64,000 nucleotides of DNA from Escherichia phage 215Ecol030PP: sequence record PP328843.1; one strand, written 5' to 3'. Both the position numbers and the translations under genes were made by a program. The first letter of the stretch is position 1, and every line of letters starts with the position of its first letter. The notes beneath the pieces were generated by a model. That model was not told the origin of the DNA, did no database searches, and saw only the letters and a program-made list of their open reading frames with translations. This document shows positions 1 through 63,131 of the stretch, piece after piece.

Positions 1-3130
<3,130 letters not shown>

Positions 3131-14089: not shown

Positions 14090-14105
14090 AGGGGCCGAAG
14101 CCCCT
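14090..14105 (-). terminator. hairpin after hoc (UUCG loop on minus strand)
   Basis: AGGGGC-CGAA-GCCCCT; U-rich on transcribed strand. Confidence 0.5.
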
Positions 14106-14109
14106 GAGA

Positions 14110-15528
14110 TTATGGATAGGTATAGATGATACCAGTTTCTAAAGCAGTTTTATGAATGATGTATCCATTACGCGATTCTTGGACATCAACTTCTGGATAA
14201 TCTTTCATCATCTTCTGAAGAGTGTAACGATGCAGGTAGTATTTACTATCTGGATCTTCAGTTTTCCAATCTTTACCTTCTTCAGTCATTTTTTGGATTT
14301 CATCCATAACCCACCAACCGCACCAGATGTAAGCTGAGCTACGATGTGGAAGAGGATGAACATAAGGTAATTCACCTTCTGGTTCCGGAGCAGCTTTATC
14401 AGTTACCTGAACTTGACCTTCTGCTGTAATAGTTTTGCTATCATAATCAGCAGCAGTAACAGTTGCAGTAACTTCAATAGTTTGACTTCCAACAGATGAT
14501 GTATCAACGGTGTATACATTAGTTGACCCTTCTACAGGAGAAGAATCTTTCTTCCATGAATACGTAATTTGCGCTTCTTCCGGAGCATCCGTAACGTTAG
14601 CAGTAAATGTAGCCGAAGCATCTTGCTGAACATTAATAGAAGGAGGAGTCAATGTAACCTGTGGATTCATTGTCTTCTTATTAACTGTCAATGATACTTC
14701 ATTAGAAGTAACTTCCTTTTCATTATAATTTTCTGCAGTTACTTGGGCTACGCATTTAATTCTTTTTACTCCACTTGTAGTTGGAGTATAGTTAAATGTA
14801 GAGTTAGTTTCTCCACCAACTTGTGAATCATCTACATACCACTGATACGTAGCAGACGCTCCGTCAGGTTGAGAAGCTAATGCAGCAGTAAATTGAACCG
14901 GGGTTCCAATTACTCCAGCAGCAGGACTAGCAGGAGTTACTGCCAAGGTAGTTGTCTGTGTCTTTTTATTAACTGTCAATGATACTTCATTGGAAGTAAC
15001 GCTCAGTGCATCATAATCTGTCGCAGTTACTTGAGCTACACACTTAATTTTTTTAACTCCGCTTGTAGTAGGAGTATAATTGAATGTAGCAGAAGTTGCT
15101 TCGCTCACAGGAGAACCGTCAACGTACCATTGATACGTAGCAGATGCGCCCGATGGCTGCGAAGCTAAAGCAGCAGTAAATTCAACAGCTGTTCCGATTA
15201 CTCCTTCTGGAGGACTATTAGGAGTTACAGCTAAGGTAGTTGTCTGTGTCTTATTTTGAACTGTGATAGTTGTACTAATTTCAGCTGTTTCAGCTTCAGC
15301 TTCTGGAACTGTATTTGTTGCAACCACTTTAATAGTCTTTTGACCAGCAGGTCCTTTTAATACATAATTAAAGGTTGCTTCAGCTCCATCCTGTGGAACA
15401 TTATCTACACTCCAAGCATAGGTAATAGTTCCACCTTCAGTTTGACCACTGGGTGCAGCAGTAAACTGCTTGGTTTCATCAATAACCCCCGTTGGTGTTT
15501 TAGGAGTTATATCAACTGTAAAAGTCAT
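14110..15528 (-). CDS. hoc: highly immunogenic outer capsid protein Hoc, four Ig-like domains plus capsid-binding C-terminal domain
   Basis: 472 aa; C-terminal YIWCGWWVMDEIQKMTEEGKDWK... capsid-binding domain; two adjacent diverged 96-aa Ig-like units. Confidence 0.92.
   Translation of the reverse strand: MTFTVDITPKTPTGVIDETKQFTAAPSGQTEGGTITYAWSVDNVPQDGAEATFNYVLKGPAGQKTIKVVATNTVPEAEAETAEISTTITVQNKTQTTTLAVTPNSPPEGVIGTAVEFTAALASQPSGASATYQWYVDGSPVSEATSATFNYTPTTSGVKKIKCVAQVTATDYDALSVTSNEVSLTVNKKTQTTTLAVTPASPAAGVIGTPVQFTAALASQPDGASATYQWYVDDSQVGGETNSTFNYTPTTSGVKRIKCVAQVTAENYNEKEVTSNEVSLTVNKKTMNPQVTLTPPSINVQQDASATFTANVTDAPEEAQITYSWKKDSSPVEGSTNVYTVDTSSVGSQTIEVTATVTAADYDSKTITAEGQVQVTDKAAPEPEGELPYVHPLPHRSSAYIWCGWWVMDEIQKMTEEGKDWKTEDPDSKYYLHRYTLQKMMKDYPEVDVQESRNGYIIHKTALETGIIYTYP
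14677..15252 (-). repeat. tandem diverged duplication of a 288-bp Ig-like domain unit within hoc
   Basis: Hoc aa 93-188 and 189-284 both read KTQTTTLAVTP...TYQWYVD...EVSLTVNK; DNA about 80 percent identical. Confidence 0.8.
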
Positions 15529-15537
15529 AAGTTATCC

Positions 15538-16218
15538 TTATTTTAATGTTACGAAAGAAGAATTACGTGTTTCACGAATTAGAACTGATCCGTCACGATT
15601 AATGTAGTAAATTAAGCTAAATAAAGTTTGGTGTGCTGACGCGTGTTCAAAACTAGTTGGGTGAGATTTCCAATCCGGAGTTTCAGCAATCCACTGGTAA
15701 ATCCACCAAGGAACGGTGCAGAATCCTGGATTTTTTCCAATCAGCTGAAGATTCGGACTAAAGTTTTCCGGAAGAGTAAATACAGACAGCTTTTCAGATT
15801 CAATAATCTCAGCTACAGCCTGCTCGAATTTTTCTTCAACAAAAGGAGTATCTTCAATCAAAACATCGGTATTTTCAGGAATTTTATCCGTTTCTACTAC
15901 TTCAATTTTAATGTCAGATTTAACCGGAGAATCAATCAGAAGTGCTGCTTCTGGATTGACTTCTTCATCGTCATATTTTAATCCGTCTGCGGCATCAGCA
16001 GCATCAATTAAGTCTTTAATAGATAACCCATCAGTCTCTGGCATAGGTTCACTAGCGAGCTTCTGGAGAGCTTCTTCAATATCATTAACGATATTATCAA
16101 AAGATTTATTCTTTTTGACCTTTATACCAAACTGTTCAGCATATTCAGCTAATTTAGCTTTAGCTTCTTTGTTATCATCAAGAGCCTTCAGCTCTGCAAT
16201 ATAATCTTTATCTATCAT
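15538..16218 (-). CDS. inh: Inh, inhibitor of prohead protease
   Basis: 226 aa ORF directly upstream of hoc on minus strand, T4 inh size and position. Confidence 0.8.
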   Translation of the reverse strand: MIDKDYIAELKALDDNKEAKAKLAEYAEQFGIKVKKNKSFDNIVNDIEEALQKLASEPMPETDGLSIKDLIDAADAADGLKYDDEEVNPEAALLIDSPVKSDIKIEVVETDKIPENTDVLIEDTPFVEEKFEQAVAEIIESEKLSVFTLPENFSPNLQLIGKNPGFCTVPWWIYQWIAETPDWKSHPTSFEHASAHQTLFSLIYYINRDGSVLIRETRNSSFVTLK

Positions 16219-16231
16219 AATATTTCCTCAG

Positions 16232-16239
16232 TATAAATA
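16232..16239 (+). promoter_or_regulatory. late promoter TATAAATA for uvsW
   Basis: Exact motif about 30 nt upstream of uvsW ATG. Confidence 0.55.
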
Positions 16240-16268
16240 TAGATATATTTATTACATGGTATTTAGAC

Positions 16269-18283: not shown

Positions 18284-18291
18284 TATTTATA
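18284..18291 (-). promoter_or_regulatory. late promoter TATAAATA upstream of the 55-aa small ORF
   Basis: Minus-strand TATAAATA about 25 nt upstream of SD AGGAGA. Confidence 0.4.
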
Positions 18292-59351: not shown

Positions 59352-62297
59352 ATGGCTACTTTAAAACAAATACAATTTAAAAGAAGCAAAACTGCAGGTC
59401 AACGTCCTGCTGCTTCAGTATTAGCCGAAGGTGAATTGGCTATAAACTTAAAAGATAAAACAATTTTCACAAAAGATGACTCAGGTAGTGTTATAGAATT
59501 AGGTTTAAAATATGGAGGAACTATAAATGGGTCTTTAGAGGTTACAGAAAATATAACTGGAACTTTAATTGGAAATTCTAGCACAGCTACTAAATTGCAA
59601 ACACCTAGGAAAATTAATGGTATATCTTTTGATGGGTCAAAGGACATTACCTTAACTCCATCTGACATAAATGTCAATAGCACAACATTTATAAAAAATA
59701 ATGGCGAATTACCTGTTGATGCTAATTTAGATACGTATGGGCCTGTTGAAGAATATCTTGGAGTTTGGTCGAAAGCAACTTCAACCAACGCTCAACCAGC
59801 AAATAAATTTCCAGAAGAAAATGCTGTAGGTGTGCTAGAAGTATTTGTGGCCGGTCAATTTGCTGGTACTCAGAGATATACAACTAGATACGGAAATGTT
59901 TATATTCGTTCCTTGACTGCTACATGGAACGGAGTAAATGGTCCGTGGAGTGTGTGGCGAAATATTCAATCCGGTACTCGTCCACTGTCAACAACAATTG
60001 ATCTTAATGATCTAGGAGGCGCTGAACACCTTGGTTTGTGGCGAAATAGTTCAAATTCCATTGCTACCTTTGACAGAAATTTCCCAGAAGAGGGGTCGTC
60101 AGCTCAAGGTCTTTTGGAAGTATATGAAGGTGGAAACTATTCTCGTACACAAAGATATACAACCAGATTTGGTGTTGTATATACTCGTTGTCTTGCTGCC
60201 GCGTGGGATGCTTCCGCGCCTAAATGGGGACCGTGGCAACAAGTCGGTAATGTCACACCAGCGACTTTCTATGACGGAAACCTGAATGATTTTAAAACTC
60301 CTGGGTTATATAACATTTTAGGCACTGATGCCGTTATTAACTGTCCTACTGGTGAAGGTTTACCAGCCGTTATTGTTGGTTTGCTGGAAGTTAAACAGCG
60401 TGCTTCTGGTGGTGCTATTTTCCAAAAATTTACTACTGCCGGAACAGGTGCAACTACCCGCGATCGTATTTTTGAGCGCGCATATACCGGCGGTGTGTGG
60501 GGTGAATGGAACGAAGTATACACATCCTATTCTCTACCAATTACTTTGGGTATGGGCGGTATTAAATCTAACTTAGCTGAGTTAGACTGGCAAACCTTTG
60601 ATTTTGTCCCTGGTAGTATGTTTAGTGTTCCTTTGAACAAAATAAAGAACATGCCAGCTAATATGAATTGGGGCACGATTGACGGAAACTTAATTATGTT
60701 TTCTGTTGGTCCTAGCGAACATACTAGCACAGGGCGTACTGTTCAGGTTTGGCGCGGTACTGTATCCCAGACAAACTACCGTTATTTTGTCGTTCGTGTG
60801 TTCGGTAATTCTGGAAATAGAACTTGCACAGTCCGCCGTGTTGTTCTTGAAGACGGATCACATACTTGGACTGCTCAACAAAACTTTAGGGGATTGCTGA
60901 ATATCACTGCTGCTGTTAATCTTGGTGCTAATCAGAAAATTTCACTTGCTCCAGGAGCATATATTCAAGCCCCTGCTAGCGGTTCTGGTTCTAATACTTA
61001 CGCAAATCAGAATACTACCATTGCACCATTATATCAGGCCATTGACGATTCAAATAAAAACCAGTTTGCACCAATTGTTAAACAGAAAAACACTGTAAGT
61101 AATATCACCTTTGCCACTGGTATGGCTATAGGTACATCCGAATATAAGATCATTGCTCAGGGTGATTTATCCGCTAATGGAACAGCAGATGGGTTAAAAC
61201 AATGGACTTTCATGCCGTCAGGTTATTTTAAATCTCCAGGGCGTGTATATGTCGGTGATGCGTTCCTTAATACAGATGGTAATATTGCCGGTTCAATCTG
61301 GAAGAAATATAACAATGCGACAAATTTAGATGCTGCCTTGAATACTCGCGTAGGTAAAGGCGGTGATACGATGACAGGTCGGTTAACAATCAATGCACCT
61401 AATGATTCTATTGTATTATCAACAACTGCTAGTAATTCTTTGCATATTCGCGGTGACATAGACGGGACTGGTAACTGGTATATTGGCAAGGGTGGTGCTG
61501 ATAATTCGCTAGCATTTTATAGCTATGCTTCTCAGGCGGCAGTACATATCACAAACAATGGTGAGATTGCGTTAAACCCGCAAAATACCGCAATGGTTAA
61601 CGTTAACCGCGACCGTGTACACATTAACGGTTCTGGATGGATTGCTAGACAACCGGGTGATTGGGGCAACCAATGGCGAGTAGAAGCTCCATTATTCGTC
61701 GATCATGGTTATGTTTCACAGGATTGTTATTATCCTATTCTTAAAGCAAGAAGCGTTATAACCAATCAAGGATATAGCACCTCTGTTGACTTTGGTATGC
61801 GTCGTACTCCATCACAGTGGGGGCAAGCAATCATTCGTGTCGGATCCACGGAGGCTTCTCCTGATGCTGGACACCCACAAGCTGTGTTTGCATTCCATCA
61901 TGATGGATTCTTTTATACACCAGGAAATGGTAGCTTTAGCGATGTGTATATTCGTTCTGATGGTCGTCTTAAGATTAATAAAAAAGAGCTAGAAAACGGA
62001 GCGGTCGAAAAAGTTTGCCGACTGAAAGTTTATATTTACGATAAAGTTAAGTCTATTAAAGACCGTAGTGTTATTAAACGTGAAGTTGGTATTATTGCTC
62101 AGGATCTTGAAAAGGAATTACCGGAAGCTGTATCTAAAGTTGAAGTTGATGGATCTGATGTTCTGACAATTTCTAACTCTGCTGTGAATGCTCTTTTAAT
62201 TAAAGCTATTCAGGAAATGAGTGAGGAAATTAAAGAATTGAAAACGCCTCTCTTTACTAAAATTGCTCGCAAAATTAGTAAATATTTTAAATTCTAA
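59352..62297 (+). CDS. 37: long tail fibre distal subunit gp37 (T2-type, with C-terminal intramolecular chaperone domain)
   Basis: 981 aa; N-terminus [13 protein letters not shown] conserved; C-terminal 113 aa begin SDGRLK. Confidence 0.9.
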
Positions 62298-62333: not shown

Positions 62334-63131
62334 ATGGCAGTAGTTGGAGTTCCTGGCTGGATTGGAAGTTCAGCCGTAAATGAAACAGGACAGCGCTGGA
62401 TGAGTCAAGCGGCTGGTCAATTAAGATTGGGTGTTCCTTGCTGGATGAGTCAATTTGCAGGTCGCTCACGAGAAATTATTCACACGCTTGGAGCAGACCA
62501 TAACTTCAATGGTCAATGGTTCCGAGATAGATGTTTTGAGGCAGGTAATGCACCTATAGTGTTTAATATTACAGGTGATTTAGTATCATATTCTAAAGAT
62601 GTTCCTTTATTCTTCATGTACGGAGATACACCAAATGAATATGTTCAGTTAAATATTATTGGCGCTCATATGTGGGGTAGAGGTGGACAAGGTGGATGGA
62701 CTCATTCCGGTGGAGATGGTAATGGACAACAAGGCGGGCATTGTATTCAAAACGACATTGGTGGACGATTAAGAATTAACAACGGTGGAGTAATTTGCGG
62801 TGGAGGTGGCGGTGGTGGCGGTATCGCTTATCGTCCTCACTCTGGCGCAAACTGGCAGGATATTGGTGGCGGTGGAGGAAGACCATTTGGCCCAGGAGGT
62901 GGCGGTGGTTATTCAGGAGGTGCTGCTTCTTATGACGGCCCAGGAGGTGGTTATAATTATGGTAATGCTCATTCTGGTCAGGGCGGTGATGCCGGAGGAA
63001 ATGGACAAAATGCCTGGTCTGATGGCGGTAAAGTACTAAAAGTCGGTGCAGGAGGAGCAGCAGGTTATGCTGTCATAGGATCTGCTCCAACTTGGCAAAA
63101 TGTTGGAGTAATATATGGTCCAAGAGTATAA
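62334..63131 (+). CDS. 38: gp38 receptor-binding adhesin with glycine-rich motifs (T2/S16 type)
   Basis: 265 aa; GGGGGGGG, GGGGG and GGGGG runs separated by variable segments. Confidence 0.85.

Follow-up and report, generated by a model that had tools for sequence, protein, structure and literature searches.

A tandem pair of diverged domain-2 units in the Hoc head decoration protein of Escherichia phage 215Ecol030PP

The hoc locus and its architecture

The stretch of DNA analysed here, which we refer to as the window, covers 64,000 nucleotides of Escherichia phage 215Ecol030PP (PP328843.1). It hosts a hoc gene on the minus strand. A first-pass annotation, made from the sequence, had noted that the product is 472 residues long, 96 more than the 376 residues of T4 Hoc, and both the open reading frame and an alignment with T4 agree with this. 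The features of the locus are as follows.

14110..15528, minus strand: hoc coding sequence, 472 aa plus stop (open reading frame); the product is the highly immunogenic outer capsid (head decoration) protein
15253..15528, minus strand: Ig-like domain 1, residues 1-92, distal fibre tip (AF2 beta-sandwich, pLDDT about 76-91)
14965..15252, minus strand: unit A, 'alpha' type, an Ig/PKD-like module, residues 93-188 (tandem repeat; T4 lacks a module at this position)
14677..14964, minus strand: unit B, 'beta' type, residues 189-284 (orthologous to domain 2 of T4 Hoc)
14395..14676, minus strand: Ig-like domain matching T4 domain 3, residues 285-378 (Pfam Ig_3 and I-set at 289-374; AF2 beta-sandwich)
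14113..14394, minus strand: C-terminal capsid-binding domain, residues 379-472 (near-identical to T4 residues 283-376; PHROG 1149/21694)
15535..15539, minus strand: AAGGA, a Shine-Dalgarno-like sequence that overlaps the stop codon of inh and lies 6 nt upstream of the ATG of hoc (direct sequence reading)
14090..14105, minus strand: candidate terminator-like element 5 nt past the hoc stop, consisting of a GC-rich hairpin, AGGGGCTTCGGCCCCT, and a T-run (consensus scan only)

The protein matches the T4 Hoc chains 5vf3_Z/8t1x (E=8.6e-222) and PHROG 1149, 'Hoc-like head decoration' (E=5e-139); the capsid-binding domain by itself also matches PHROG 1149 (E=2e-54). When the open reading frames of the window are compared with the T4 annotation (UniProt P18056; PDB 5VF3, 8T1X; hoc is 1131 bp in NC_000866), this is the same gene at the same locus, flanked by inh, which PHROG 1051 confirms, and 24.3. 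The gene order gene 24 - rnlB - 24.2 - 24.3 - hoc - inh - uvsW is conserved, the sole difference from T4 being the absence of segE. Phages NBG2 and fPS-2 have an annotated terminator under hoc. The minus strand lacks a canonical T4 late promoter (TATAAATA) between hoc and position 18284, and sigma-70-like matches upstream of hoc occur at chance level only.

The window Hoc is organised as Ig1 - Ig2alpha - Ig2beta - Ig3 - capsid-binding domain, that is, four Ig-like domains, where T4 Hoc has one domain-2 unit and three Ig-like domains; both end in the capsid-binding domain. The first-pass annotation had proposed this four-domain count, and Pfam and the AF2 model agree with it. PKD scores 43.8 bits (cutoff 23.5) and Ig_2 27.3 (cutoff 27), while Ig_3 and I-set reach significant E-values at scores under their Pfam cutoffs. 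Unit A carries Ig_2 and BiPBP_C stretches at 120-186 and unit B a PKD stretch at 197-267, and AF2 predicts each as a separate beta-sandwich (pLDDT about 85-94 and 92-96, respectively). The model as a whole holds four such domains (pLDDT about 85-96), and the boundaries of the repeat units coincide with domain boundaries in it. Domain 1 matches an HMM of the units weakly (38 bits), and at the nucleotide level it is 89% identical to T4 and 100% identical to RB32. Residues 285-378 align to T4 Hoc residues 189-282; T4 domains 1 and 3 are 89-92% identical in nucleotides to those of the window.

The structural model has its limits. Foldseek matches are multi-Ig strings, including RB49 Hoc (3shs), with TM-scores that are low for the whole model because the domains flex relative to one another; this search is informative only as confirmation of the multi-Ig character. 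The model is poor for the C-terminal domain (pLDDT 37-68), and with a pTM of 0.54 the inter-domain geometry is unreliable. No evidence that we encountered contradicts the four-Ig architecture.

Two old paralogues in tandem

Two repeat finders agree on a tandem repeat at 14671-15264 (288 nt, 2.1 copies, 79% matches, TRF score 750), which is far above chance expectation. Units A and B fall exactly where the first-pass annotation had placed a pair of paralogous Ig-like units (14677-15252), and its estimate of about 20 percent nucleotide divergence is matched by the 78.8% identity that we measure. The two differ at 61/288 nt and share 79.2% (76/96) of their residues, in frame and with zero indels. 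Their ends are much better conserved than their middles. T4 Hoc aligns to window residues 1-106 and 189-472, thus the window protein exceeds it by exactly one 96-aa unit. The single unit of T4 is 91% identical in nucleotides to unit B versus 81% to unit A. Among other phages, the nearest relatives of unit A are the first-position units of two- and three-unit Hocs, and those of unit B are second-position units.

Could the repeat be an artefact of assembly or sequencing? This is extremely improbable. The copies are in frame and yet diverged as described, and roughly 200 independent genomes in GenBank, RB27 and PP01 among them, have the same 1419-bp gene. This divergence, together with the recurrence of the architecture in hundreds of independently sequenced phages, rules out a misassembly, and a chance repeat was rejected as well.

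The duplication is old, as the first-pass annotation had also supposed. The dS between units A and B is 0.71, compared with 0.14-0.37 between the window and T4 in the other domains. Across the phages compared, the mean distance between units is 0.126 for the same position and 0.205 for different positions, the smallest paralogue distance within one protein is 14.6%, and in 73/78 cases the nearest neighbour of a unit is the same-position unit of another phage. Because of this positional pattern and the high dS, we conclude that the duplication predates the divergence of the compared phages, and that positional orthologues exist. Both units are under purifying selection (dN/dS of A versus B is 0.20). 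Their differences cluster in loops (14/41 loop versus 6/55 strand positions, Fisher p=0.01), and none of 170 units inspected was frameshifted or decayed.

Copy number among Tequatrovirus hoc genes

A two-unit hoc is not peculiar to Escherichia phage 215Ecol030PP. About 35% of the Tequatrovirus genomes in GenBank carry one. The 1419-bp gene is present in 19 of about 54 evenly sampled records, and a junction search gives about 225 of 616 records, a tally that rests on places arithmetic and single-piece rows; a junction-spanning query joins the two half-matches of one-unit genes, so its coverage counts do not discriminate. The 472-aa Hocs of Pu-Krd-SF1, VEc20, PP01, RB27, IME340 and NBG2 have the architecture and length of the window protein at 92-97% nucleotide identity over 1419 bp, and their annotations read Hoc, 'PKD domain protein' or 'capsid and scaffold protein'. 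The differences are allelic only, and the window allele matches none of the listed records exactly (best 96.6%). Some Tequatrovirus genomes also host a 1707-bp, three-unit hoc. Its 568-aa product, e.g. in Escherichia phages UGKSEcP1/UGKSEcP2 and ENA contig L003, has the same array in the same alpha-beta order and adds a third unit, gamma, which brings the Ig-like domains to five where the window has four.

Our population analysis uses representatives of 90%-identity clusters and a UPGMA tree, in a gene that recombines. Among 121 representatives the unit types are distributed as beta (49), alpha-beta (23), alpha (17), gamma (8), alpha-beta-gamma (4), alpha-gamma (3) and beta-gamma (1). The window allele is therefore the common alpha-beta state. 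These are all order-preserving subsets of alpha-beta-gamma, and they cover nearly every architecture observed. The three types are equidistant from each other (77-81% in nucleotides) and have identical boundaries. Strongly diverged 'delta' units, about 50% identical, occur in register at positions 2 and 3 in P0040 and P0043, which are otherwise typical Tequatrovirus Hocs.

Unit number shows almost no correlation with the flanking-domain phylogeny. On the flank tree it requires 29 parsimony changes versus 36 when shuffled, where 'changes' mix true copy-number events with allele shuffling. Furthermore, one-, two- and three-unit alleles occur on identical flank protein sequences. A good example is the two-unit hoc of UoN_LDJ77_1, whose flanks are 100% nucleotide-identical to those of a three-unit allele and whose first unit is a chimera with 0 mismatches, made of nucleotides 1-78..92 of unit 1 and the remainder of unit 2 (13 informative sites of type '1' followed by 54 of type '2'); its last unit differs from that of the three-unit allele, therefore the two are not a simple parent-offspring pair. 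The single unit of P0086 is an alpha/beta/alpha/gamma mosaic between flanks identical to a three-unit allele. The domain-2 region is thus a tandem array of 1-3 copies, repeatedly resized by unequal recombination.

The single units of T4 and RB32 are also A/B mosaics relative to the window. That of T4 is beta-type with an alpha-like patch at about nt 217-260, in the F-G loop region. A plain deletion was rejected as its source, as an alpha x beta deletion would leave a patch of the opposite polarity. The patch sequences, ATDYDALSV versus AENYNEKEV, segregate independently of unit type. For RB32/RB33, a one-crossover collapse of a window-like alpha-beta array was rejected because the informative sites are mosaic (A..BBBB..A-run..B-run..AA); the best one-breakpoint A/B chimera still leaves 12 mismatches to the RB32 unit.

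Origin and possible consequences of the array

We hold with considerable confidence that the window gene is an ordinary, intact Tequatrovirus hoc in which an alpha and then a beta paralogue, both ancient, take the place of the T4 'domain 2' module. The paralogue types are old, and in-register unequal homologous recombination between the 288-nt units repeatedly alters their number, yielding 376-, 472- and 568-aa forms of Hoc plus chimeric units. For the window allele itself the rate of such switching may be low, given that the longest identical in-register run between A and B is just 26 nt. The first-pass annotation described the duplication as maintained. This stands for the paralogue types and fails for copy number, which has often changed by unequal recombination.

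The same annotation called the domain 'extra'. Relative to T4 there is indeed one unit more, while the gain that the word implies is another matter, since loss in T4-like short alleles fits the data equally well or better. The crossover product in UoN_LDJ77_1 and the lability of copy number suggest that the short form of T4 may be derived. We give roughly even odds to a multi-unit array, alpha-beta or alpha-beta-gamma, being ancestral in Tequatrovirus, with the T4-type 376-aa Hoc a product of unit loss. In its favour, single-unit alleles come as alpha, beta and gamma types and chimeras thereof, the alpha-to-beta-to-gamma order is retained in nearly every multi-unit allele, a 3-to-2 collapse via an exact in-register crossover is demonstrable, and the P0086, T4 and RB32 units are mosaics, the first of them between the flanks of a three-unit allele. 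Set against this, the analysis is not outgroup-rooted, a single beta unit is the most frequent state (49/121), expansions also arise from unequal crossover, and gene conversion between alleles could make mosaic units with copy number unchanged. A different source for the second unit could be the hoc of a diverged T4-like phage ('allele stacking'), which would make the units xenologues and not in-situ paralogues. The delta units of P0040 and P0043 show that foreign cassettes can be inserted in register, and the conserved unit ends supply recombination anchors. We nevertheless consider such an import unlikely: the constant order of the types in nearly all multi-unit alleles favours a single origin over repeated stacking, and alpha, beta and gamma are equally close with identical boundaries.

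What would a second domain-2 unit do? In T4, Hoc forms 155 fibres with a length of about 180 A, and Y293, H295, H299, R300, W309 and W310 are described as capsid contacts (PMC10385173). The corresponding window residues (Y389, H391, H395, R396, W405 and W406) are invariant in the alignment, and the near-identity of the binding domains suggests that the window Hoc binds capsids as well. By homology with T4, the C-terminal domain would anchor a single molecule to the middle of every gp23* hexamer (about 155 molecules per head), and the Ig string would project as a fibre one module longer, roughly 220 A versus 180 A if linear. Given the poor C-terminal model and the low pTM, a linear and longer fibre is an assumption.

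With the added module, these variable loops would be present as two sets and the SLT strand motif in two copies; in the window the motif lies at residues 183-185 and 279-281, one per unit. In the Hoc of phage PNJ-9, S183/L184/T185 of domain 2 bind MUC2, and the conserved SLT motif is reported in contact with MUC2 fucose (PMC11853027); the support is co-immunoprecipitation of strand mutants, which may simply unfold the domain. That study is a published case in which closely related T4-like coliphages have Hocs with different numbers of domains, and it shows that the mucin-binding module can be domain 2 (PMC11853027). Its 'variant Hoc' lacks domain 3 and so has fewer domains, whereas the window protein has an additional domain 2 and two SLT motifs. 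The literature on binding to mucin glycans or bacterial surfaces through the Ig-like domains concerns the Hocs of T4, PNJ-6 and PNJ-9. A possible longer reach, altered mucin or cell adherence and altered display geometry, which the first-pass annotation had envisaged, are reasonable ideas, and antigenicity may be affected too.

The length variation might be without consequence, i.e. selectively neutral slippage in a dispensable gene, with an extra module that has no effect on adherence, antigenicity or display. Hoc is dispensable in the laboratory, so differences in length could be nearly neutral; the phylogeny of the flanks hardly predicts copy number, and Hoc homologues tolerate from 1 to about 15 modules. 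We regard neutrality as possible, though doubtful, as both units are under purifying selection, their cores are conserved while their loops vary, decayed units are absent from the set of 170, and the identities of the paralogues are kept across many phages. A further reading, rather unlikely in our view, is that the ordered alpha-beta-gamma cassettes expand, collapse and re-assort by unequal recombination often enough to form a population-level variation system. It would adjust how long the 155 fibres are (3, 4 or 5 Ig modules), how many glycan-binding sites they carry and which antigenic surface they present, under mucosal or host-antibody selection. If true, the hoc array would be a phage counterpart of bacterial repeat-number surface variation. 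For example, streptococcal Rib/alpha C proteins carry in-frame tandem Ig-fold modules whose number, projection length and antigenicity are changed by homologous recombination. Repeats of that type are usually near-identical and numerous, whereas the Hoc units are 20% diverged, ordered and present in 1-3 copies.

That Hoc homologues vary in their number of Ig domains has been published before. [quoted passage not shown] 2023, PMC10385173). In our comparison the N-terminal arms of the family have lengths that are multiples of about 93 aa and hold between 1 and about 15 modules. The published variation spans distant genera, whereas here it is found among near-identical alleles of one genus and inside one module type. 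This within-genus domain-2 array is undescribed in the full-text literature that we searched, a scope outside which Sathaliyawala 2010 and Fokine 2011 fall. The window gene itself is an ordinary allele of an already-deposited type.

T4 Hoc is the standard capsid display vaccine scaffold and a model protein for 'bacteriophage adherence to mucus'. As a reference, its three-Ig form covers only about 60% of natural T-even alleles; Hocs with four modules are common, and there are also some with five. This bears on the choice of Hoc scaffold, where antigens at the tip would sit about 40 A further out, and on how adhesion differences between therapeutic T4-like phages are read. The natural series of one, two and three units on identical backgrounds is well suited for tests of fibre length or module number against mucin binding. 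Finally, the results are relevant for annotation, as such hoc genes carry inconsistent labels: 'PKD domain protein', 'capsid and scaffold protein', 'capsid whiskers' and even 'endonuclease'.

A Hoc with four Ig-like domains in the window

The hoc gene of the window carries a 288-nt tandem repeat, detected by two independent repeat finders (14671-15264, 2.1 copies, 79% matches, TRF score 750). The gene and its repeat units are laid out as follows.

14110..15528, minus strand: hoc open reading frame, 472 aa
14965..15252, minus strand: unit A, residues 93-188
14677..14964, minus strand: unit B, residues 189-284

Units A and B share 78.8% of their DNA sequence and 79.2% of their protein sequence (76/96) with zero indels, and their first 11 and last 12 residues are the same. 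T4 Hoc has 376 aa (PDB 5vf3_Z; the NC_000866 gene is 1131 bp) and its alignment covers residues 1-106 and 189-472 of the window protein. The latter thus amounts to T4 Hoc with a single 96-aa unit added. The first-pass annotation had proposed both this excess length and the paralogous units. The length is borne out by the reading frame and the T4 alignment, and the unit coordinates proved exact given the repeat finders, the codon register and the protein identity.

The Pfam PKD model matches the window Hoc at 43.8 bits (cutoff 23.5). PKD and Ig_2 each have two stretches, one in each unit, and Ig_3 and I-set map to residues 289-374. An AlphaFold2 model (47 sequences in the input alignment, mean pLDDT 83) contains four distinct beta-sandwich domains at residues 1-91, 93-188, 189-284 and 285-377, mostly with pLDDT 85-96; model confidence is low for the C-terminal helical/beta domain. 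Foldseek matches in the PDB are to multi-Ig strings only, namely four-domain fragments of Dscam, Sidekick and ICAM-5, and RB49 Hoc (3SHS). The capsid-binding domain is almost identical between the window and T4. The T4 residues that contact gp23* by cryo-EM (Y293, H295, H299, R300, W309 and W310; PMC10385173) are kept as Y389, H391, H395, R396, W405 and W406. Taken together, the predicted sandwiches, the Pfam and Foldseek matches and the conserved capsid-binding domain describe a protein of four Ig-like domains and a capsid-binding domain, where T4 Hoc has three such domains and the capsid-binding domain (PMC10385173). This agrees with the domain count first suggested for the window, and the independent folding of both units is likewise predicted by the model.

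The two units differ with dS=0.71, dN=0.14 and dN/dS=0.20 (Nei-Gojobori), compared with dS=0.14-0.37 when window domains are set against their T4 orthologues. Amino-acid differences between A and B are biased to predicted loops (14/41 loop versus 6/55 strand positions, Fisher p=0.01), and column entropy across the population has the same loop bias. These values argue for an old duplication with both copies kept functional, so the earlier view of its age and maintenance was right; the units are under purifying selection.

In T4 there are 155 Hoc per head, one per gp23* hexamer, each forming a fibre of ~180 A (PMC10385173). By inference from T4, the window Hoc would also stand as a fibre, one per gp23* hexamer and 155 per head. 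If the string is linear, the extra module of ~45 A would give a fibre of roughly 220 A, and the duplication would also present twice the domain 2 variable loops. The SLT strand motif occurs twice (residues 183-185 and 279-281). In PNJ-9 Hoc, SLT has been reported as a MUC2/fucose contact, a report to be taken with caution as its basis is strand mutants. By analogy, this putative contact motif would be doubled in the window. Adherence, aggregation, antigenicity and display geometry might all be affected.

Hoc length among related phages

Variation in the number of Ig-like domains in Hoc has been published, and hundreds of annotated genomes share the architecture of the window. Most members of the Hoc family consist of Ig-like domains in a string, the maximum being the 10 of phage Muldoon (PMC10385173), and a coliphage Hoc without domain 3 has been characterised (PMC11853027). 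A search of 1.84 billion representatives with the 94-aa capsid-binding domain found 138 proteins. The lengths of their N-terminal arms are multiples of ~93 aa, corresponding to between 1 and ~15 modules. Two modules are commonest, and four occur in several independent clusters. This family-wide variation reproduces the published statements. Among the papers covered by the literature search, none was found to describe the domain-2 array within Tequatrovirus or its recombinational dynamics.

The Hoc homologues recovered by our protein search fall into three separate length classes of 376, 472 and 568 aa, with one, two and three units respectively. The full 1419-bp gene is present as one piece in many GenBank phage records, including PP01, RB27, IME340, NBG2 and PhiZZ30. 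In an evenly spaced sample from 656 matching records, hoc is ~1419 bp in 19 and ~1131 bp in ~35. A junction-spanning query hit 1066 places in 616 records; if each record with the junction accounts for three places and every other record for one, ~225 records (~36%) carry the junction. The two estimates agree, and the T4 reference length is thus merely the majority allele. The decoration protein is known and variable, and the window hoc is one of its ordinary, common alleles, deposited many times.

The 472-aa and 376-aa Hoc clusters are named inconsistently across public databases ('PKD domain-containing protein', 'capsid and scaffold protein', 'capsid whiskers protein', 'capsid vertex protein'), and two (P0014 and P0118) are even labelled 'endonuclease'. 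This annotation noise deserves correction. Two individual loci also stand out. In Escherichia phage T2 (LC348380.1, 105474-106590, match H101) the hoc region is just 1117 bp long and carries annotations for two hypothetical proteins, which suggests a disrupted gene; in classical work T2 heads were reported to lack Hoc. In Shigella phage KNP5 (NC_055713.1, a 193.6-kb record; 109965-112036, match H130) the two pieces of the match extend over 2072 bp yet cover only 76% of the query; the locus is unusual or carries an insertion.

An ordered array reshaped by recombination

We excised 170 domain-2 units from 121 Hoc proteins and clustered them. Apart from a few very divergent 'delta' units, there are three main types.

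alpha: motif GSPVxEATxAT
beta, the T4 type: motif DDSQVGGETNST
gamma: motif GSLVDGETTTT...VGAKTV

In multi-unit proteins alpha comes first with one exception, beta second, and gamma last without exception.

Domain-2 architectures among the 121 proteins (chimeric variants also occur)
beta: 49
alpha-beta: 23, including the window
alpha: 17
gamma: 8
alpha-beta-gamma: 4
alpha-gamma: 3
beta-gamma: 1

Chimeric variants apart, every one is an order-preserving subset of alpha-beta-gamma. Units of different proteins lie at a mean distance of 0.126 at the same position and 0.205 at different positions, and the nearest neighbour is the same-position unit of another protein in 73/78 cases. Paralogues within a protein are never less than 14.6% apart, so the sampled proteins contain no recent duplications.

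Unit number changes readily on a tree of the flanks (domains 1 and 3 plus the C-terminal domain), with 29 parsimony changes against a mean of 36 and a minimum of 31 for shuffled labels, and one, two or three units are found on identical protein flanks. At the DNA level, one case is the two-unit hoc of UoN_LDJ77_1 (OK570375.1), whose flanks (276 nt + 564 nt) are 100% identical to those of a three-unit hoc from an ENA contig. Its first unit is a zero-mismatch chimera of the longer gene's unit 1 (nt 1 to 78..92) and, for the remainder, unit 2; the informative sites read 13 of unit 1, then 54 of unit 2. A single unequal crossover in register that removes exactly 288 nt leaves this signature. Single units can be mosaic too: that of P0086 is alpha/beta/alpha/gamma, that of T4 is of beta type apart from an alpha-like patch in the F-G loop, and that of RB32 is alpha with beta-like patches. 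The unit-number polymorphism of hoc is driven by recombination. Because of the ordered subsets and the chimeras, loss from a longer array, yielding T4-type alleles, would be at least as likely as gain in the window. That the array serves as a recombinational system of length and antigenic variation is a doubtful, though conceivable, extension.

Domain 1 of RB32 (NC_008515.1; positions 301-576 of L002, its hoc locus) is 100% identical over 276 nt to window 15253-15528 and the two phages share 95.8% nucleotide identity in domain 3 and the C-terminal domain, implying a recombination breakpoint within hoc. The F-G loop segment (unit nt ~217-260; window 14993-15036 in unit A, 14705-14748 in unit B) has discrete haplotypes (ATDYDALSV, AENYNEKEV, ATDYDAKEV) that segregate independently of unit type, the T4 beta unit carrying the ALS patch and the RB32 alpha unit ENYNEKE. 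Such a pattern points to a mini-cassette that is exchanged on its own, or to a tract of gene conversion. Delta units, ~50% identical to beta and in register, occur in P0040 (unit 2) and P0043 (units 2-3), Hoc proteins otherwise typical of Tequatrovirus; they may be cassettes imported from a more distant T4-like lineage.

Genomic setting

The window is a Tequatrovirus (T-even) segment with ~97% identity over 24 kb to Pu-Krd-SF5 and vB_EcoM_112, among others. Its Hoc matches PHROG 1149, 'Hoc-like head decoration' (E=5e-139), and the locus has the T4-like order gene 24, rnlB, 24.2, 24.3, hoc, inh, uvsW. In the T4 annotation the GIY-YIG homing endonuclease gene segE sits between inh and uvsW, whereas the window lacks segE and has a gap of just 50 bp (16219-16268). 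Two signals border hoc.

6 nt 5' of the hoc ATG: Shine-Dalgarno-like AAGGA
14090-14105, minus strand, directly 3' of the hoc stop codon: terminator-like GC-rich hairpin AGGGGCTTCGGCCCCT with a T-run

No canonical late-promoter octamer was found directly upstream of hoc on its strand. Elsewhere, a 981-aa gp37-like reading frame (59352-62297, plus strand) is followed by a 265-aa frame (62334-63131, plus strand) whose entire length matches PHROG 2056, 'tail fiber protein; host specificity'. We take this pair to be the T2/T6-style gp38 tip adhesin arrangement, unlike T4, in which gp38 is a short chaperone.
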